The translations under genes were made by a program, and so were the position numbers. Source: Gemmatimonadales bacterium (GTDB lineage Bacteria; Gemmatimonadota; Gemmatimonadetes; Gemmatimonadales; GWC2-71-9). Taken from it: a stretch of 64,000 nt of DNA. Below are positions 4,477 through 64,000 of this stretch, in pieces. The notes under the pieces are model-generated. The model was not told the origin of the DNA. It worked only from the letters and a program-made list of their open reading frames with translations, and did not search any database. Within the stretch, counting starts at the first letter, position 1. Every line of letters begins with the position of its first letter. The DNA lies in the NCBI GenBank assembly GCA_035538515.1, contig DATLKF010000007.1, positions 131,438-195,437 on the forward strand, read 5' to 3'.

Positions 4477-5255
4477 CCATGTGGCAGGGAATCGTTCTGG
4501 GACTGGTGCAGGGGCTCACGGAGTTCCTCCCGGTCTCGAGCTCCGGGCATTTGCGCGTGCTCGAGGTGGTCGCGGGAGTCCATGCGCCCGGTGTCTTCGT
4601 GGAGGTGAGCCTGCACGTGGCGACGTTGGGGTCGGTGCTCGTCGTTTACGGGCGGCGCCTGTGGAGCATCGTGCGCGGGGCGCTGGTGCGACAACCGGCC
4701 GATCTGCGGACGGCGGGCTTGCTCGCGATCGCGACGCTGCCGGCTGGCGTCATCGGGGTCATGTTCCACCGGCAAGTCGAGGCAGCAGCATCACTGCTGC
4801 TCGTCGGCGCGGGATTCATGGTGACGGGTTTCATGAACTGGTCCACTCGCGGGCGGGCCGGTAGCCGCCTGGAGCCCACGGTCGCGGTTGCCACGGGGAT
4901 CGGGTTCGCGCAAGCGCTGGCGGCGGTATTCCGCGGCGTCTCTCGGTCGGGGTCGACCGTGTGCGCAGCCCTATGGGGCGGCCTCGGCCCGGCGGCCGCC
5001 GCGGAGTTCAGCTTCCTGCTCGCGGTTCCGGTGATCGCCGGCGCCGCTCTGGTCGAAGGACGGCACATGGCGGTGAGCGTCGCGGCGGTCGGGGCGGCAC
5101 CGCTGGCGCTGAGCTTCGTCCTCGCGTTTGCGAGTGGGATCTGGTCCATCCGGTTTCTCGTGGCGCTGCTCCAGCGAGGCCGGTTCTACACGTTCGCGCC
5201 GTACAACTGGGCCATCGGCCTGCTGACGATCGCGTACGCGCTGTGGCGCGGCTGA
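4473..5255 (+). CDS. uppP: undecaprenyl-diphosphate phosphatase UppP/BacA
   Basis: Hallmark EFLPVSSSGHL near the N-terminus and a polytopic membrane profile. ATG 4473 forms an ATGA overlap with the upstream stop. The upstream part of ORF 4308.. overlaps the previous gene. Confidence 0.87.
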   Translation: MTMWQGIVLGLVQGLTEFLPVSSSGHLRVLEVVAGVHAPGVFVEVSLHVATLGSVLVVYGRRLWSIVRGALVRQPADLRTAGLLAIATLPAGVIGVMFHRQVEAAASLLLVGAGFMVTGFMNWSTRGRAGSRLEPTVAVATGIGFAQALAAVFRGVSRSGSTVCAALWGGLGPAAAAEFSFLLAVPVIAGAALVEGRHMAVSVAAVGAAPLALSFVLAFASGIWSIRFLVALLQRGRFYTFAPYNWAIGLLTIAYALWRG

Positions 5256-5995
5256 CGCTCGACGGCGTCCCGGCCGCGGATCTCGCCGCCCGCTGGGGTG
5301 TGCCGCAATGCGGACTCTTTCGCCGGCTCGACTCGACCCTGACGGCAGTGCACGATCTCGCCCCGCAAGGAGCGCCCGCGGGCACGCTGGTGATCGCCGA
5401 AGAGCAGACCGCCGGCCGTGGACGGGACGGCCGCACCTGGCACTCCCCTCCGGGCGGCGTCTGGCTCGGCATGCTGCTGCGCCCGGCACGTGGCGAGCTC
5501 GCGGTCCTGTCCGTCCGCGTGGGGCTCGCCGTCGCCGACGCGGTGGACGCCCTGCTCGGCCGGGTCGAGACGCAGCTCAAGTGGCCGAACGACGTCGTGC
5601 TGGGAGAGCGCAAGCTCGCGGGAATCCTGTGCGAGGGCCGCTGGCACGGCGAGACACTGCAATGGCTGGCGCTCGGCGTAGGGATGAACGTCTGCAACCC
5701 GATCCCCGTCGCCGTGGCGCGCCAAGCGGTGGCGCTGAGCGAATGGCTCCCGTCCGTGCAGCGGCTCGACGTGCTGGATCGCTTGGTGCCAGCGCTTCAC
5801 GAGCTGACAGTCGGCGATCCCGCGCTGAGTGAGCGCGAGTGCGCGGCGTTCGCGGCGCGCGACTGGTTGCTGGGTCGCCAGTTACGGTCGCCGGCCGCCG
5901 GTCGCGCGCGTGGCCTCCGCCCCGACGGCGCCCTGCTCGTCGATCTCGGGGCGGCGACGGTGGCCGTGCGGGAGGGGCATGTGGAGCTGGCATAA
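5243..5995 (+). CDS. birA: biotin--[acetyl-CoA-carboxylase] ligase BirA (no HTH domain)
   Basis: GRGRDGRTWHSPPGG and KWPNDV...KLAGILCE motifs. Start inferred at in-frame GTG 5243 (13-nt overlap with uppP). The start is uncertain. Confidence 0.75.
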   Translation: MARLTLDGVPAADLAARWGVPQCGLFRRLDSTLTAVHDLAPQGAPAGTLVIAEEQTAGRGRDGRTWHSPPGGVWLGMLLRPARGELAVLSVRVGLAVADAVDALLGRVETQLKWPNDVVLGERKLAGILCEGRWHGETLQWLALGVGMNVCNPIPVAVARQAVALSEWLPSVQRLDVLDRLVPALHELTVGDPALSERECAAFAARDWLLGRQLRSPAAGRARGLRPDGALLVDLGAATVAVREGHVELA

Positions 5996-6024
5996 GAGGG
6001 CGGGAGAGGTCGGTAGAGGTCGGG
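5995..6024. repeat. Left arm of decamer palindrome: 3 tandem copies of AGAGGKCGGK
   Basis: Read directly: AGAGGGCGGG AGAGGTCGGT AGAGGTCGGG, beginning on the last base of the birA stop codon. It is the reverse complement of the array at 6471-6510. Confidence 0.9.
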
Positions 6025-6105
6025 CGGGCTTCGATCCGCGTCTTTCCGCCACCTTGTGCGACGATTCGATCCCTGTCTTGGTAACCCCGGCGTTACGTTG
6101 CTGCC

Positions 6106-6468
6106 ATGCCACCCTATGAGTCGCTTCGAGCATGGCAGGAATGTCATAAGCTCGTCCTCGAGACTTATGGCGTCACGAAGTCGTTTCCGAGGGAAGAGAC
6201 CTACGGCTTGACCTCCCAGGCCCGACGGGCTGCGTTCTCGGCGGCTGCGAACATTGTCGAGGGATCAGCCAAGCGCGGCGTTCGCGAGTGTCGTCGTTTT
6301 CTCAACGTCACCATCGGCTCGCTGGCAGAGCTCGGCTATACGTTTCGCGTTGCACGAGAACTCGGGATCGTGACAAACCGGGAGTGGGAGACTCTGACGG
6401 ATCTGCAAAAGCGCGCCGGGTTTCTCACGTGGCGGCTGTATCGGTCGTTGGACCCCGGCGGCCATTGA
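6106..6468 (+). CDS. four-helix-bundle protein (23S rRNA intervening-sequence protein / TIGR02436-PF05635-like)
   Basis: 120 aa. YESLRAWQECHKLVLETY...TSQARRAAFSAAANIVEGSAKRG..E..RFLNVTIGSLAELGYTF is the characteristic pattern of this family. The gene is visibly lower in GC than its neighbours. Confidence 0.8.
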   Translation: MPPYESLRAWQECHKLVLETYGVTKSFPREETYGLTSQARRAAFSAAANIVEGSAKRGVRECRRFLNVTIGSLAELGYTFRVARELGIVTNREWETLTDLQKRAGFLTWRLYRSLDPGGH

Positions 6469-6470
6469 TA

Positions 6471-6510
6471 CCGACCTCTGCCGACCTCTACCGACCTCTA
6501 CCGACCTCTG
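6471..6510. repeat. Right arm of decamer palindrome: 4 tandem copies of CCGACCTCTR
   Basis: Read directly: CCGACCTCTG CCGACCTCTA CCGACCTCTA CCGACCTCTG, starting 2 nt after the stop of the four-helix-bundle gene. Confidence 0.92.
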
Positions 6511-6522
6511 TAGCTTTGCTCC

Positions 6523-7302
6523 ATGCTCCTCGCCATCAACATCAACAACACCGAAACGAAAGTCGGCCTGTTTCGGGGCGACAGCCTCGAGGCCCATTGG
6601 CGGCTCACGACCACGCCCTCCCGCACACCCGACGAGTGGGCGACCGCGCTCACGCAGTACCTGGCGCAAGAAGGCTGGTCGACTCAGGAGGTTCGAGCGG
6701 CGGTGGTCGCCTCCGTAGTGCCGCCGGTCACCCAAGGACTGTGCGAGGCGGTGGAACGCGCCACCACCGTGCGGCCGGTGGTCGTGGACGGCCGCTCGCC
6801 GCTGCCCATCACGCTCGACGTCGAGGAGCCGTTGCAGGTGGGCGCGGATCGCATCCTCAACACGCTCGCGGCGGCGCAGCTGTTCCGGCGTGACACCATC
6901 GTCGTGGACTTCGGCACCGCGACGACGTTCGACTGCATCACCGCCGACGGTCACTTCCTGGGCGGCGTGATCATGCCCGGCATCCGCACTGCGTCGGACG
7001 CCCTAATCCGCGGAACCGCCAAGCTGCCCGCCACGGACCTCACGCCTCCCGCGCACACCATTGGGCGTCGCACCGACGAGGCGATCCGCGCCGGCGTGCT
7101 GCTGGGCACCGCCGACGCGGTAGATGGGATCGTGCGCCGCATCAAGGCCGAATGGCCTAAGGGCGCCACGCCCCAGGTGATCGCGACCGGCGGACTGGCG
7201 AATCTCGTGGCGCCCCTCGTTCGCGGGATCGAGTCGGTACATCCTGACCTCACCCTTACGGGGCTTCGCATCGCCGCGACGGCGCTCGAGCTGACGTGGT
7301 AG
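6523..7302 (+). CDS. coaX: type III pantothenate kinase CoaX
   Basis: N-terminal LLAININNTETKVGLF, VVDFGTATTFD and ATGGLA motifs of the type III PanK/ASKHA fold. Confidence 0.87.
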   Translation: MLLAININNTETKVGLFRGDSLEAHWRLTTTPSRTPDEWATALTQYLAQEGWSTQEVRAAVVASVVPPVTQGLCEAVERATTVRPVVVDGRSPLPITLDVEEPLQVGADRILNTLAAAQLFRRDTIVVDFGTATTFDCITADGHFLGGVIMPGIRTASDALIRGTAKLPATDLTPPAHTIGRRTDEAIRAGVLLGTADAVDGIVRRIKAEWPKGATPQVIATGGLANLVAPLVRGIESVHPDLTLTGLRIAATALELTW

Positions 7303-11134: not shown

Positions 11135-12772
<1,638 letters not shown>

Positions 12773-12775
12773 GAG

Positions 12776-12880
12776 CTAGACGCGTAGACGCACAGACGGA
12801 AAGCGGTACGTAGGAAACAGGGGTCGGGAGCATCTCCCGGCCCCGGTGTGCTGTGGGCCACTGTGCGTCTGTGCGTCTAG
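12776..12880. repeat. Octamer-unit palindrome (AGACGCRY arms) enclosing an inner GC hairpin
   Basis: The left arm CTAGACGCGTAGACGCACAGACGG (12776-12799) is approximately the reverse complement of CCACTGTGCGTCTGTGCGTCTAG (12858-12880). The inner 11-bp hairpin GGGGTCGGGAG-CAT-CTCCCGGCCCC lies at 12820-12844. Confidence 0.85.
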
Positions 12881-12909
12881 TTGTTGCCTGTGCGCGTATC
12901 TTTGCTCCA

Positions 12910-30177: not shown

Positions 30178-31071
30178 ATGAGGCGAATGCTCGCTAACGC
30201 CGGACTGGCGCTGCTCGTGGCGGCCCACCCGGCGATCGCTCAACAGGGGGGGGTGGGGGGGTCGGGAGGGCTGGGGGGGCGGGGGGGGCTGACGATCGAT
30301 TGGGCGCGCACGTCGGTCAACGGCGCCGCTGCCGCTCGGGGCGAGGGTCCGGACGGGGCGACCGCCCTCAAGATCCAGGGTCGCGCGACCGGCACGTTGT
30401 TGCACCTCGTCACGATCCCGCGCCCGCCGGTCACTGTACCACGCTACGTCGTTACGGGCGAGGTGCGGTACCAGGGCGTTGAGGGGCAAGCGTACTTCGA
30501 GATGTGGAGCGCGTTCCCCGACGGCGAGCGCTACTTCAGTCGCACGCTGGACGCGGGTGGCATGCTCGCGGCGCTCCATGGCGACTCGAAGTGGCGGCGG
30601 TTCGCTCTTCCTTTCGTCTACAACGCCACAGCCGGCACGGCCCCGCTTCCCAGTCGGCTCGAGATCAACTTCGTGCTGCCCGGACGCGGGACCGTATGGA
30701 TCGGCCCCATGCGTCTCCAGCGGTTCGGGTTGCCACCTGTTGCGACGACCGGCGGCTGGTGGAACGAGCGTGTTGGCAGCCTGGCAGGGGTGCTCGGCAG
30801 CGTGTTGGGTCTCGTCGGCGGGTTGGTCGGCGTTCTCGCGGGCCTGGGGAAGGCGCGCCGGCTGGCCCTCTCGCTCGTCGTCGGGATGGTGCTGGTCGGG
30901 GTCGGGTTGGCGGCGCTGGGCGCCGTGGCAACCTTGAGTTCGCAGCCGCGATACGTCTGGTATCCACTGCTCCTTGTGGGAGGTGTGTCGGCGCTCGTGG
31001 GGCTCGTGGTGCTACCCGTGGTTCGGCGCCGCTACGCGGAGCTCACGCGGGCCCAGCCGATCGGCGGCTAG
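30178..31071 (+). CDS. hypothetical secreted/membrane-anchored protein with Gly-rich N-terminal tract
   Basis: ATG 30178 follows GGAGG. Signal peptide LALLVAAHPAIAQ, then GGVGGSGGLGGRGG encoded by G-runs, with C-terminal TM helices. Confidence 0.5.
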   Translation: MRRMLANAGLALLVAAHPAIAQQGGVGGSGGLGGRGGLTIDWARTSVNGAAAARGEGPDGATALKIQGRATGTLLHLVTIPRPPVTVPRYVVTGEVRYQGVEGQAYFEMWSAFPDGERYFSRTLDAGGMLAALHGDSKWRRFALPFVYNATAGTAPLPSRLEINFVLPGRGTVWIGPMRLQRFGLPPVATTGGWWNERVGSLAGVLGSVLGLVGGLVGVLAGLGKARRLALSLVVGMVLVGVGLAALGAVATLSSQPRYVWYPLLLVGGVSALVGLVVLPVVRRRYAELTRAQPIGG

Positions 31072-36416: not shown

Positions 36417-36421
36417 GGGGT

Positions 36422-36564
36422 TGTCAGTCATCCGTTATCAGTCATCAGTCATGATCGGACCGGGGTACGGTGACGACCAACAGATAACGGATGACGGATA
36501 ACTGATAACTGACGACTGATGACTGATGACTGATGACTGATGACTGATAACGGATGACTGATAG
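36422..36564. repeat. Heptamer-unit palindrome filling the rimP-nusA spacer (right arm = 12 tandem heptamers CNGAYRA)
   Basis: The left arm 36422-36454 (TGTCAGTCATCCGTTATCAGTCATCAGTCATGA) is the reverse complement of part of the right arm. The right arm (36481-36564) is 84 nt, exactly 12 x 7, and ends on TAG immediately before the nusA ATG. Confidence 0.92.
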
Positions 36565-37965
36565 ATGACCAACACAACCGACGTCGTCTCTGCAATTCGC
36601 GAGCTGACGAACACCAAGCAGCTCGAGCGCTCGGAGCTGCTCGACCTGCTCAAGGACGGGCTGCACGCCGCGCTGGTCAAGCGGTACGGACCCAACGTGC
36701 GGGCCGAGATCGGCATCGATGAGCTGAAAGGCACGATTCGCATTGCGGTGCTGCGCACCGTGGTCGAGAGTGTGGAAGATCCGGCGGCGCAGGTGACCCT
36801 CGAGGAAGCCCGCTTCGAGGACCCCGACTTTCAGGTGGGGGACGTCCTGGAAGAAGAGGTGCCGTTCGAGGCGTTCGGCCGTACTGCGGTGCAGGCGGCC
36901 AAGCAGCGCATTATCCAACGCGTGCGCGAAGGCGAGCGGGCGCGCATTCGCGAGGAGTTCACCGACAAGGTCGGCGATCTCCTGTCGGGAGAGGTGCAGC
37001 AGATCGAGCGCGGCAAGATCGTCGTCATGCTCGCGAAGTTTCGAGAGGCCGAGGCGATCATCCCTTATCGGGAGCAGAATCACCGCGAGCACTTCCACCA
37101 GGGTGACACGATTCGCGCCGTGTTGAAGCGCATCGAAGAGACGCCCAAAGGCCCGCGGCTCATCCTGTCGCGCGCCGACCCGCTGTTCGTCAAAGCGCTG
37201 TTCAGGCTCGAGGTGCCGGAGATCCAGCAGCAGATCGTGGAAATCCGGGCCACCGCGCGGGAAGCGGGGAGCCGCACCAAGATCGCGGTCTCGTCACGCG
37301 ACGACTCGATCGATCCGGTAGGCGCGTGCGTCGGCCTAAAGGGATCGCGCGTCCAGGCCGTCGTGAACGAGCTCGGTGGCGAGCGCATCGACATCGTGCC
37401 GTGGTCGCCCGATCCCGAGCGGTTCGCCAAGCTGTCGCTCGCCCCGGCCCGGGTCGCGAAGGTATTCTCCGATCCCGAGACCAAGACGATCCAGGCGATC
37501 GTGGACGAGGACCAGCTCTCGCTCGCCATCGGGCGCAACGGGCAGAATGTGCGGCTTGCGTCCGAGCTGACCGGCTGGAAAATCGACCTGTACTCGAGCC
37601 GCGAGTGGCTGGAGCGTGGCGGGGAAGGCCCGCTGTTCGCCCCGCTCCCCCCCGTCGAAGATGAGTCCGCCACCAAGGTCGCCCTGCGCGAGCTCAAAGG
37701 CCTGCCGGTCGAGCTGGTCGACATCCTCGAGCAGGCGGGCCACAAGACGCTGCAGGACATCCTGGACATGGAGCGCGAGGACGTCGAGAAAATCGCGGGC
37801 GTCACGCCCGAGCTCGCGGACAAGCTCATGGCTTTCCTGAACGAGATGACCGAAGAGGGCGGGGACGAGGAGGACACGCCCAGTGGCGGACCGAGTGGGG
37901 GGAGAGAGGGGGCCGCAGGTCGCCCGGCTGAGTCCGGCGGCGGCCGGCCTGCCCCAGCGGCGTGA
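36565..37965 (+). CDS. nusA: transcription termination/antitermination factor NusA
   Basis: Full-length similarity (N-terminal domain, S1, two KH domains: GACVGLKGSRVQAV, LAIGRNGQNVRLA) plus a C-terminal acidic repeat. Confidence 0.97.
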   Translation: MTNTTDVVSAIRELTNTKQLERSELLDLLKDGLHAALVKRYGPNVRAEIGIDELKGTIRIAVLRTVVESVEDPAAQVTLEEARFEDPDFQVGDVLEEEVPFEAFGRTAVQAAKQRIIQRVREGERARIREEFTDKVGDLLSGEVQQIERGKIVVMLAKFREAEAIIPYREQNHREHFHQGDTIRAVLKRIEETPKGPRLILSRADPLFVKALFRLEVPEIQQQIVEIRATAREAGSRTKIAVSSRDDSIDPVGACVGLKGSRVQAVVNELGGERIDIVPWSPDPERFAKLSLAPARVAKVFSDPETKTIQAIVDEDQLSLAIGRNGQNVRLASELTGWKIDLYSSREWLERGGEGPLFAPLPPVEDESATKVALRELKGLPVELVDILEQAGHKTLQDILDMEREDVEKIAGVTPELADKLMAFLNEMTEEGGDEEDTPSGGPSGGREGAAGRPAESGGGRPAPAA

Positions 37966-44989: not shown

Positions 44990-46000
44990 ATGATTCGACT
45001 CTTCGCCAACGCCGACTACGACTTCATCAAGTGGCGCCGCTGGGCGTACGGGCTCACGGCCGCGATCATCATTCCCGGGTTCTCGCTGTTCCTGGGGCGC
45101 GGCTTGAACTATTCGATCGAGTTCACCGGCGGTACGCTCATCCAGGTGCAGACGCCGCAGCCCGTGGGGACCGAGCGCATCCGCGGCGCGCTCGACGCAG
45201 CGGGCATCCGCGACGCCGAGATCCAGCAATTCGGCGCGCCCAACGAGTATGTGATCCGCGCCCGGCTCGGCCGCGCGAACGCCGCCGTCGAGGGGTCCAC
45301 GGAAACGACCGCGGCGGCGGTCGACTCGGCGCTGGCGCGGAGCCTGGGGCCCCCGCCCGAGCACTATAAGATCCTGCGCACCGAGGCGGTGGGTCCGAAG
45401 GTGGGTCGCGAGCTGCAGGGCAAAGCGTTCCTCGCCATTTTCTTCTCGTTCATTGTTACGCTCGTGTACCTCGCGATCCGGTTCGAGTGGCGCTTTGGGC
45501 TGGCCGCGGTGCTCGCGACGTTCCACGACATCCTGACCACGATCGCGTTCATCCGCTATTTGGACCTCGAGGTGAGCCTCGTCGTGGTTGGCGCGGTATT
45601 GACGATGGTGGGGTACTCGCTCAACGACACCATCATCATTTTCGACCGGGTGCGTGAAAACCTGCGCAAGTTCCGGCGCCAGAACCTGTACGAGATCCTC
45701 AACCTCTCCATCAACGAGACGCTGCCGCGCTCCGTGCTGACGCACGGCACCACGATGGCGACCACGCTGGCGCTGGTGCTGCTCGCGGGCGAGGTGCTGC
45801 GGCCGTTCGCGCTCGTGATGACGTTCGCCATTTTCACGGGGACGTTCTCGTCGATCTACATCGCCGCGCCGATCCTCATGTACATCGAGAGGCGCTGGCC
45901 CGGCCAGGATGCACGCGGCGCCCGGGCGTTCAAGCCGGCAGCGGAACCCGAGCGAGCGCCCGCGAGCATTCCCGGGCCTCGGTCGAAAGCGCCGGTGTAA
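44990..46000 (+). CDS. secF: protein translocase subunit SecF
   Basis: Immediately follows secD. GLNYSIEFTGGT and GYSLNDTIIIFDRVRE motifs. Confidence 0.93.
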   Translation: MIRLFANADYDFIKWRRWAYGLTAAIIIPGFSLFLGRGLNYSIEFTGGTLIQVQTPQPVGTERIRGALDAAGIRDAEIQQFGAPNEYVIRARLGRANAAVEGSTETTAAAVDSALARSLGPPPEHYKILRTEAVGPKVGRELQGKAFLAIFFSFIVTLVYLAIRFEWRFGLAAVLATFHDILTTIAFIRYLDLEVSLVVVGAVLTMVGYSLNDTIIIFDRVRENLRKFRRQNLYEILNLSINETLPRSVLTHGTTMATTLALVLLAGEVLRPFALVMTFAIFTGTFSSIYIAAPILMYIERRWPGQDARGARAFKPAAEPERAPASIPGPRSKAPV

Positions 46001-46080
46001 CGGTGACCGGGGTTCGGTGTCCGGTGTCCGGGACCGCTAGGATGTGACACCGGACACCGGACCCCGGACCCCGGTCACCG
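46001..46080. repeat. Heptamer-unit palindrome (GGTGTCC / GGACACC) filling the secF-tatD spacer
   Basis: The left arm CGGTGACCGGGGTTCGGTGTCCGGTGTCCGGG (46001-46032) pairs with ACACCGGACACCGGACCCCGGACCCCGGTCACCG (46047-46080). The 14-nt loop ACCGCTAGGATGTG contains the tatD GTG. Confidence 0.9.
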
Positions 46081-63783: not shown

Positions 63784-64000
63784 GTCGGACGGGCGGACGG
63801 TCGGACCGTCGGAAGGTGGCAGCGTGGGTCGTCCTCACTGCCGTTCTGTCCTTCTGTCCGACCGTCCGACTGTCCGCCCAGAACGACACGACTCCTCCTC
63901 CCGTCGTCACGACGGGAGCCCTCGTGGTCCCCACCGACACATCTCACCGCGTACGCCCGATGGGCGCTTTCTTTCGGTCCCTGCTCGTGCCGGGATGGGG
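63780..64000 (+). CDS. hypothetical secreted protein (3' end outside window)
   Basis: ATG 63780 forms an ATGA overlap with the upstream stop. The frame is open to the window end. N-terminus MSRTGGRSDRRKVAAWVVLTAVLSFCPTVRLSAQ looks like a signal peptide. Not in the ORF track because no stop is reached. Confidence 0.4.
   Translation, partial: MSRTGGRSDRRKVAAWVVLTAVLSFCPTVRLSAQNDTTPPPVVTTGALVVPTDTSHRVRPMGAFFRSLLVPGW
63784..63879. repeat. Octamer-unit palindrome (GTCGGACS / SGTCCGAC) inside the 5' end of the last ORF
   Basis: The left arm 63784-63813 (GTCGGACGGGCGGACGGTCGGACCGTCGGA) pairs with the right arm 63846-63879 (TCTGTCCTTCTGTCCGACCGTCCGACTGTCCGCC). About 21 of 25 core positions are complementary. 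Confidence 0.85.

Follow-up and report, generated by a model that had tools for sequence, protein, structure and literature searches.

A four-helix-bundle gene between inverted decamer arrays in the birA-coaX spacer of a Gemmatimonadales bacterium: one copy of a modular, probably mobile cassette

Positions 5995-6510 of a 64-kb stretch of DNA from a Gemmatimonadales metagenome-assembled genome (MAG) (the whole stretch is called the window here) hold a small gene of the S23p family, i.e., the proteins encoded in intervening sequences (IVSs) of 23S ribosomal RNA (rRNA). The gene lies between the host genes birA and coaX and is bracketed by two tandem arrays of decamers, the second of which is the reverse complement of the first. 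The locus raises the question of whether such a gene came to lie in a hairpin that the spacer already possessed, or whether gene and repeats form a single unit. We find that the segment is one copy of a modular cassette, built in the order G-rich array, leader, S23p/Avd-like gene and inverted array, and that this cassette is probably mobile. On balance, and with moderate confidence, it is read here as a selfish cassette of the IVS type residing outside rRNA, whose arms recombine in DNA and would pair in read-through RNA. The features of the locus are as follows (TRF, Tandem Repeats Finder).

5243..5995, + strand: birA, biotin-protein ligase (PF03099, TIGR00121), the upstream host gene, with its stop codon TAA at 5993-5995
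5995..6024, + strand: left arm, three tandem decamers AGAGGGCGGG AGAGGTCGGT AGAGGTCGGG (TRF, repeat finder)
6025..6105, + strand: leader, 81 nt (alignment of 23 leaders)
6106..6468, + strand: four-helix-bundle gene, 120 aa, S23p / 23S rRNA IVS protein family (PF05635, TIGR02436)
6471..6510, + strand: right arm, four perfect tandem decamers CCGACCTCTR (CCGACCTCTG / CCGACCTCTA / CCGACCTCTA / CCGACCTCTG)
6523..7302, + strand: coaX, type III pantothenate kinase (PF03309, E=3.7e-61; NF009855, 262 bits), the downstream host gene

The spacer is taken up by the arms, the leader and the gene. The left array, of the AGAGGKCGGK type and G/purine-rich on the coding strand, starts on the final base of the birA stop codon (5995). 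The open reading frame (ORF) measures 363 nt, from the ATG at 6106 to the TGA at 6466-6468, and is separated by the two bases TA from the right array, whose unit is the reverse complement of the left-arm unit and which ends 12 nt short of the coaX ATG. TRF reported a period of 10 for both arrays, with 3.0 and 4.1 copies, and the repeat finder paired 5995-6023 with 6481-6509 (29 nt, 93% complementary, 457 nt between). Local alignment of the upstream flank with the reverse complement of the downstream flank scored 48, compared with a maximum of 22-24 in shuffles. The exact 9-mer CCGACCTCT occurs at six places in the 64 kb, all of them in these arms, and no further array of the AGAGGTCGG unit is found anywhere in the window.

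The encoded protein matches PF05635 (E=2.4e-25, 89.2 bits, cutoff 33.8) and TIGR02436 (83.1 bits, cutoff 24), in both cases above the curated threshold of the hidden Markov model (HMM). The polar motif R-x3-S-x3-N-x2-E-G is present as R41, S45, N49, E52 and G53 and is invariant or nearly so across 36 relatives. The family motif has been published as GxxRxxxSxxxNxxE (PMC3936711); its leading G is replaced by Q38 in the window protein, and likewise in Xanthomonas XCC0516, the closest solved relative (PDB 2GSC, E=3.5e-18, residues 3-92). By similarity to 2GSC, which is pentameric, the protein is predicted to assemble as a homopentameric ring. It is basic, with an isoelectric point (pI) of 9.6, and shows no recognizable catalytic motif within its 120 residues; array binding is our leading guess for its role. 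The gene is under strong purifying selection (median dN/dS 0.108). Its GC content is 0.603, compared with 0.731 in birA and 0.691 in coaX, and the GC content at third codon positions (GC3) is 0.686 compared with 0.837 and 0.865, which corresponds to z = -3.6 against the 49 likely genes of the window. All 23 copies in birA-coaX spacers behave in the same way (gene GC3 0.68 vs 0.88-0.90). The first-pass annotation of this DNA, made from the letters alone, had described the arrays, leader and ORF, and each of these is where it was placed (sequence, TRF, repeat finder); its assignment to the 23S rRNA IVS family and its impression of a lower GC content are borne out by the HMM scores and base compositions just given.

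Genes borne by mobile elements are usually AT-shifted relative to their host. The AT shift of the four-helix-bundle gene is also seen in Xanthomonas, Stenotrophomonas and cyanobacteria (including L190, L193, L178, L181 and L183; L numbers denote the loci collected for comparison). It was observed relative to the neighboring genes in every host examined, even where the cassette is apparently a long-term vertical resident.

Copies of the gene at other sites carry the arrays with them. Paralogues at L088 (between a Big_2 giant protein and NfeD) and at L101/L110 (between an amidohydrolase and RNase E/G) bear the AGAGGNCGGT-type decamer of the window, so that related genes share this unit at three loci, the one in the window included; a fourth site, L089/L092 (between peptidase S9/DUF1003 and acyl-CoA dehydrogenase), holds a more distant paralogue with a related GGCGGTGGAG-type decamer. 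A metagenome scan with the family alignment yielded 80 additional loci, and a census was taken over 82 distinct cassettes of the Gemmatimonadota type, with the upstream array counted within 220 nt. A tandem array is present upstream in 80/82, downstream in 76/82 and on both sides in 75/82 of them, with a median of about four repeat copies per arm. In the median, the left arm ends 78 nt 5' of the ATG and the right arm begins 7 nt 3' of the stop codon. In 73 of the 75 two-sided cassettes, the upstream array is the one that is G-rich on the coding strand. The unit consensus of the left arm and the reverse complement of that of the right arm agree at 9.35/10 within cassettes vs 7.42/10 between cassettes, and changes of period are common to both arms (10/10, 9/9, 8/8, 15/15). 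Units differ by gene clade (AGAGGWCGGT, GGAGGTTGGK, GGTGGAGGAT, GGGACGGTAA, GGAATGAT, GGATGGGC, 15-17-mers and 20-28-mers), are mirrored in both arms in every clade, and their type tracks the tree of the four-helix-bundle gene. All collected DNA together contains 95 inverted array pairs; the 82 pairs enclosing more than 100 nt each hold a four-helix-bundle gene, and the remaining 13 have loops of 10-86 nt. Judged by these sequence comparisons, the arrays are part of the cassette and accompany the gene to other intergenic sites.

The closest protein homologues (72-82% identity) are mostly located in the same birA-coaX spacer. On many contigs the gene lies on the strand opposite to birA and coaX, and the existence of two orientations at this junction is a point that the first-pass annotation had missed. 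The polarity of the arrays is constant whatever the orientation of the gene, with AGAGG..CGGT after birA and CCTCTACCG before coaX, and the leader flips together with the gene in inverted cassettes. When forward loci were compared with reverse loci using BLASTN, the flanks matched on the plus strand and the cassette, arm to arm, on the minus strand with 83-86% identity. An assembly artifact as the source of the opposite orientations was considered and rejected: the assembly k-mers (k141, according to the contig names) exceed the arms (at most ~60 bp) in length, the orientation variants are ~15% apart, and several independent contigs agree.

GTDB species representatives were scanned with CoaX, which yielded 80 syntenic loci. 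Their spacers are 35 nt long and repeat-free, or hold a forward cassette, a reverse cassette, a gene-less decamer palindrome or other inserts. The 35-nt spacer ends with ...GTCTATCTTAGCGGCGCC-ATG and has a conserved GTCTATCTTAGC motif in close and distant relatives; because the ending motif is kept even in the distant ones, this spacer represents, on the present comparison, the ancestral state. Gene-less short decamer palindromes occupy the spacer in L018, L020 and L023. In L020 the left arm runs directly into what is left of the ORF, its final ~30 nt, and the junction in L023 lies within GAGGGCGGTGA, an ORF 3' end that mimics the repeat unit; all three palindromes are deletion derivatives of the cassette. 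ORF 3' ends that resemble a repeat unit read in the direction of the left arm occur in many cassettes (..CGAGGGCGGTGA, e.g., L106/L101). Such an end can pair locally with the first units of the right arm, and it forms the junction of at least one deletion (L020 and L023 junctions).

Other contents of the spacer are further tandem-repeat structures and inserts unrelated to the cassette, among them a CPBP-like membrane protein and a reverse-strand membrane ORF accompanied by a solo GGTTGGGAGG palindrome. The last of these was seen in L014, where the palindrome GGTTGGGAGG / CCTCCCCAACC (1753-1830) directly follows the birA stop codon beside a reverse-strand ORF of 200 aa; its unit is of the type of a different four-helix-bundle clade, which suggests a separate, since-decayed cassette insertion at this junction. 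In L032 (1966-2500), from another Gemmatimonadota MAG, the spacer contains an ORF with an HUH-like motif (..AAGIVADHVHVVVQLP.., IS200/RAYT Y1 type) that is unrelated to the four-helix-bundle cassette. Because several unlike inserts are found there, including the HUH-like ORF, the birA-coaX junction is a hotspot for several small elements.

In a neighbor-joining (NJ) tree of coaX, forward, reverse and other spacer states are interleaved among close hosts, and in an NJ tree of the four-helix-bundle gene the birA-coaX copies fall into a single clade, forward and reverse ones mixed. The most parsimonious account is repeated in-situ inversion and deletion with the arms as recombination substrates. 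The cassette would have entered a repeat-free spacer of ~35 nt in the ancestor of one Gemmatimonadales subclade, would have been flipped arm to arm several times, and would have been lost by deletions that left gene-less palindromes behind. The arms thus recombine in DNA, with inversions and deletions as the outcome.

The same arrangement recurs in other phyla. A tblastn search of PLSDB gave matches in cyanobacterial plasmids only (33-50% identity), annotated as "S23 ribosomal protein" or "four helix bundle protein". Inverted heptamer arrays flank the gene on both sides in 11/12 of the plasmid copies examined, with units that differ from copy to copy (TAGGGTG, TAGGGAG, AGTCAGG, AAGGGAA, TTAGCTG, GGCAGAA and others); the twelfth copy has lost one side and lies beside an ISL3 transposase. 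The cyanobacterial cassettes are situated in tight junctions, for example cas6-cas4, cmr2-cmr3 and the beta-alpha junction of ribonucleotide reductase. An extreme case is the copy in the cas6-cas4 junction of Pseudanabaena plasmid pPg_01 (L181): ~17 tandem AAAAGCT units adjoin it on the upstream side, ~10 AAAAGCC units of like orientation follow downstream, and an inverted AGCTTTT array is found farther upstream. A search with the aligned part of XCC0516 placed the four-helix-bundle genes of X. campestris (XCC0516 itself) and Stenotrophomonas between accB and accC, with GGGAATC arms; in Xanthomonas the upstream array is GGGAATCGGGAGTGGAGAATCGGGAATCGG and the downstream array CCCATTCCCCATTCTCGACTCCCTATTCCC, which immediately precedes the accC ATG. 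The left array in Xanthomonas overlaps the N-terminal codons of the gene, and several cyanobacterial left arms abut the ATG, so the arms of these copies must be transcribed. At the level of sequence, Gemmatimonadota, Cyanobacteria and Gammaproteobacteria share the same array-gene-array architecture.

Arrays of this kind have been described before. The heptamer GGGAATC is strongly enriched in the intergenic regions of the Xanthomonas genomes Xcc and Xac, where it forms 70-75 convergent inverted pairs; its function was left unexplained and the four-helix-bundle protein is unmentioned (PMC4692102). Paired arrays of five heptanucleotides in Geobacter metallireducens were interpreted as regulator sites (PMC2700814). 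Like the cassette arrays, those of Xanthomonas, of Nostoc (GGGGA(C/T)T; PMC4692102) and of Geobacter are intergenic, have units of 7-10 nt with one strand G-rich, often form convergent inverted pairs near ORF ends, and stay stable from one related genome to another; unlike them, they were published as gene-less, with proposals of G-quadruplexes or regulator sites, whereas the cassette arrays enclose a gene with which they co-evolve. A literature search found no report linking such arrays to four-helix-bundle genes, and their cross-phylum association is apparently undescribed. Short intergenic heptamer arrays known as STRR elements are comparable structures in cyanobacteria.

Among known systems with a gene of this family, the 23S rRNA IVSs of Coxiella burnetii, Leptospira and Brucella resemble the cassette in having S23p/PF05635 in the loop, a size of ~430-520 nt, short tandem repeats, a suspected selfish or mobile nature, and the sense strand inside the host transcript. 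The IVS of Coxiella comprises 428 nt, with a terminal inverted-repeat stem of 28 bp, the S23p ORF in the loop and two to three GACAGAT heptamers of variable copy number in the 5' part, and is excised by RNase III in vitro (PMC4990558). As cited there, Ralph and McClelland proposed in 1993 that IVSs are mobile and that the ORF they carry serves this mobility. The S23p family is also found in 16S and 23S insertions of bacteria of the Candidate Phyla Radiation (CPR). The 29-nt arms of the window cassette provide terminal inverted repeats that form a long stem around the S23p ORF, as in an IVS. The insertion site is not a 23S or 16S rRNA helix (IVSs occupy helix 25 or 45 of the 23S rRNA) but the birA-coaX spacer of a protein-coding operon; further differences are that the arms consist wholly of decamer arrays, that both orientations occur, and that RNase III excision has been shown for IVSs and is an analogy for the cassette, one that the work on the Coxiella IVS strengthens.

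In a read-through transcript from either side the arms would pair into a duplex of ~30-40 bp; the minimum-free-energy (MFE) and the centroid RNA fold both contain the arm stem (z=-3.65). In the median, the arrays begin 3 nt past the birA stop codon and finish 13 nt short of the coaX ATG, so that a duplex that loops the insert out would bring the stop of birA and the start of coaX to within ~15 nt of each other, closer than in the 35-nt ancestral spacer. The same duplex would be a canonical RNase III substrate. Looping-out and cleavage together would explain the tolerance of such cassettes in operon junctions and rRNA helices.

The leader was aligned for 23 forward and reverse copies and has the conserved blocks TTT.T.GCCAC, CTTGCA, CGAT and TACGTT, the last 6-7 nt 5' of the start codon. 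Despite these blocks, neither a -35/-10 pair nor a consistent hairpin is assignable in it. For positions 5900-6600, a sigma-70 scan gave no match to a promoter consensus, a terminator scan gave two terminator-like matches, both within coding sequence, and Rfam at a permissive threshold gave no match and no rRNA. A leaderless mRNA of the four-helix-bundle gene was considered; the GTG start codons of many copies argue against it.

Several observations weigh against the reading as a selfish, IVS-type cassette. RNase III cleavage at the arms is postulated by analogy. Mismatches in the arms show no excess of G-U over A-C (61 vs 77 of 2644 pairs), and gene conversion in DNA alone could therefore keep the arms complementary. 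In reverse copies the operon transcript cannot serve to express the gene, which must use a promoter in the leader, where no promoter consensus was found. The choice between inversion and re-insertion is carried by NJ trees of 345 and 777 nt without bootstrap, and the closest forward/reverse pair shows 83% identity in the cassette vs 97% in coaX; allelic replacement by homologous recombination may have produced the orientations instead of in-situ inversion. No transposase, target-site duplication or recent transposition event was identified, and most paralogue clades are apparently long-term residents of one site. As to target-site duplications, none is clear when empty and filled sites are compared, and the repeat termini and the diverged coaX-proximal sequence make any such duplication unreadable.

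The first-pass annotation had offered two explanations, a gene that inserted into a pre-existing spacer hairpin and a small non-autonomous cassette that travels with inverted-repeat termini. The second is strongly supported as far as travel with the termini is concerned, given the same arms at other loci, arrays on both sides in 75/82 distinct cassettes, a unit that follows the phylogeny of the gene, and the recurrence of the architecture across phyla; "non-autonomous" is not established. The first, in which the palindromes are native and the gene is a separate, loop-targeting element, is improbable. It would suit the abundance of gene-less tandem-repeat palindromes in the window and related loci, the position of 23S IVSs in rRNA hairpin loops, and the Xanthomonas copy, whose surrounding arrays have a unit that abounds throughout the genome. 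However, the ancestral birA-coaX spacer of 35 nt is repeat-free; the gene-less palindromes at the site keep ORF remnants or adjoin filled relatives and are thus derived, so that L018, L020 and L023, which do show the decamer palindromes expected in related genomes, are deletion derivatives rather than pre-insertion sites; AGAGGNCGGT is common to related genes at three loci, whereas the other palindromes of the window use other units; and unit type tracks the gene tree. A programmed inverton, whose arms would be invertase sites and whose flipping would switch expression of the four-helix-bundle gene or read-through into coaX within a population, is less probable still. The same site does show both orientations, and its arms do not change with them, but no recombinase is encoded within ~3 kb on either side, the variants are ~15% apart in cassette sequence and hence represent old lineage differences and not flips within a population, four contigs of one variant from different samples have a single orientation, and arm sequences are too variable among cassettes for one dedicated invertase. 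Neither a nearby recombinase nor both orientations in one population was thus found. Least credible of all is a remnant or accessory gene (Avd) of a diversity-generating retroelement (DGR). Avd belongs to the same superfamily, being a basic, pentameric, nucleic-acid-binding four-helix bundle (PMC10053308), and bAvd (PDB 4DWL) is a distant homologue; the matches to the bAvd-like PF22296 (E=9e-4, 20.1 bits, cutoff 40) and to NF033474 (17.2 bits, cutoff 80) are weak and below cutoff. The cassette has no template or variable repeats, no reverse transcriptase is found among the neighbors (in order UbiA, BacA, BirA, CoaX and UbiA), the PADLOC defense models gave no match, and tblastn against phages found no relatives. 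A scan of viral contigs with the family alignment found none either.

A further explanation overlaps with the selfish IVS-type cassette and does not exclude it. In a partnership of protein and repeats at the DNA level, similar to that of RAYT and REPIN, the basic protein, which in its solved relatives is a ring-forming pentamer, would specifically bind its cognate arrays and would maintain, synapse or disperse them, and gene-less palindromes elsewhere in the genome would be non-autonomous derivatives. We regard this as possible, though doubtful. It accords with the basic nature of the protein and the purifying selection on it, with some four units per arm, with gene-less palindromes that demonstrably derive from cassettes, with the X. 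campestris arms that consist of the very heptamer enriched in intergenic regions (PMC4692102), and with the paired five-heptamer arrays of Geobacter read as regulator sites (PMC2700814). The repeat unit also co-varies with the protein clade, but this is also expected from simple co-inheritance. Binding of the arrays by the protein is putative, the protein lacks a recognizable catalytic motif, units of 7 to ~28 nt are awkward for one fixed binding geometry, and AGAGGTCGG occurs nowhere else in the 64 kb, whereas six palindromes there have other units.

REP/REPIN-RAYT systems likewise combine a single gene with flanking inverted short repeats, possibly dispersed in gene-less form, and are mostly vertical, long-term residents. 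They differ in that RAYTs are HUH (Y1) transposases flanked by cognate repeats, whereas no HUH motif is present in the window protein, and in that the cassette arms are tandem arrays instead of single imperfect palindromes, with one unit per paralogue. Drosophila foldback (FB) transposons, mentioned as a lead only, have long inverted termini made of short tandem repeats, sometimes with a coding loop, and are prone to inversion and deletion; unlike the cassette they are eukaryotic, far larger and carry unrelated loop genes. Gene-less dispersal of the cassette unit holds in Xanthomonas when the GGGAATC arms are combined with the published counts (PMC4692102); the window contains no other AGAGGTCGG array.

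We tentatively propose that four-helix-bundle proteins are element-encoded partners of cross-phylum tandem-repeat palindromic elements, the ring protein recognizing the arrays and promoting their persistence or spread; this is a conjecture to which we assign a rather low probability. If it is true, the gene-bearing cassettes would be "master" copies, and intergenic short arrays as well as 23S/16S IVSs would be their gene-less or rRNA-resident derivatives, including the GGGAATC pairs of Xanthomonas, the STRR-type heptamers of cyanobacteria, the paired arrays of Geobacter and the other palindromes of the window. It would amount to a system like RAYT/REPIN, but one whose protein binds nucleic acids and is not an enzyme. 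ORF-bearing 23S IVSs have been unexplained since 1993 and the function of the protein family is obscure outside DGRs, a question that is now testable. The heptamer arrays of Xanthomonas, Nostoc and Geobacter were previously described without a protein partner, and one architecture now links them with IVSs. The package sits in operon junctions such as birA-coaX, accB-accC, cas6-cas4 and cmr2-cmr3, and it shows presence or absence, inversion and decay to solo palindromes. Family members located between cas genes, once read as CRISPR-associated proteins (PMC3936711), are more simply explained as cassette insertions. XCC0516 of X. campestris offers a tractable model for both the RNA-processing and the array-binding hypothesis: its structure is solved, its host can be cultivated, RNA-seq has been published, and there are more than 100 cognate arrays.

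A TAnCTT-type motif is conserved 6-9 nt 5' of the coaX ATG (6511-6522 in the window; L008-L064). It has the form GTCTATCTTAGC at empty sites and GTAGCTTTGCTCC in the window, with no Shine-Dalgarno sequence there, and may be the -10 element of a coaX mRNA whose leader is very short or absent.

Six other tandem-repeat palindromes were found in the window, at 1478-1542, 2367-2528, 12771-12885, 36420-36563, 45992-46080 and 63784-63876. Their existence had been noted at the first pass; their loops span about 14-103 nt instead of the 10-50 nt then given, and their units are unlike that of the cassette. Those at 1478-1542, 12771-12885, 45992-46080 and 63784-63876 are intergenic and gene-less, with the units GTCGGACC, TAGACGCA, CCGGTGT and GTCGGACG, and have the G/purine-rich array first, as in the cassette; units of the GGACGGTC type have the core GGACGGT in common with AGAGGACGGT, a decamer found in related cassettes. 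These four may be solo derivatives of other cassettes. The heptamer palindrome at 2367-2528 (GTCSTCA ... TGACKGA) has the reverse polarity, with the pyrimidine-rich array first, and its left array, together with the ~100-nt "loop", falls within the final ~40 codons of a MiaA-like ORF ending at 2488. It is of one unit family with the palindrome at 36420-36563, in which ~4 TCAGTCA units face ~10 GATGACT units directly 5' of an ORF starting at 36565. A G-run tandem repeat (GGGGGGGCT) of ~5 copies was reported by TRF at 30246-30291.

In L116, L121, L131, L132, L133, L141 and L144, an orthologous gene-less heptamer palindrome is located at ~650-765. Its unit is AATGCGG, AGTGCGG, AACGCGG or GATTGCG depending on the locus, while its arms stay complementary; the change of unit in this solo palindrome is concerted or compensatory.

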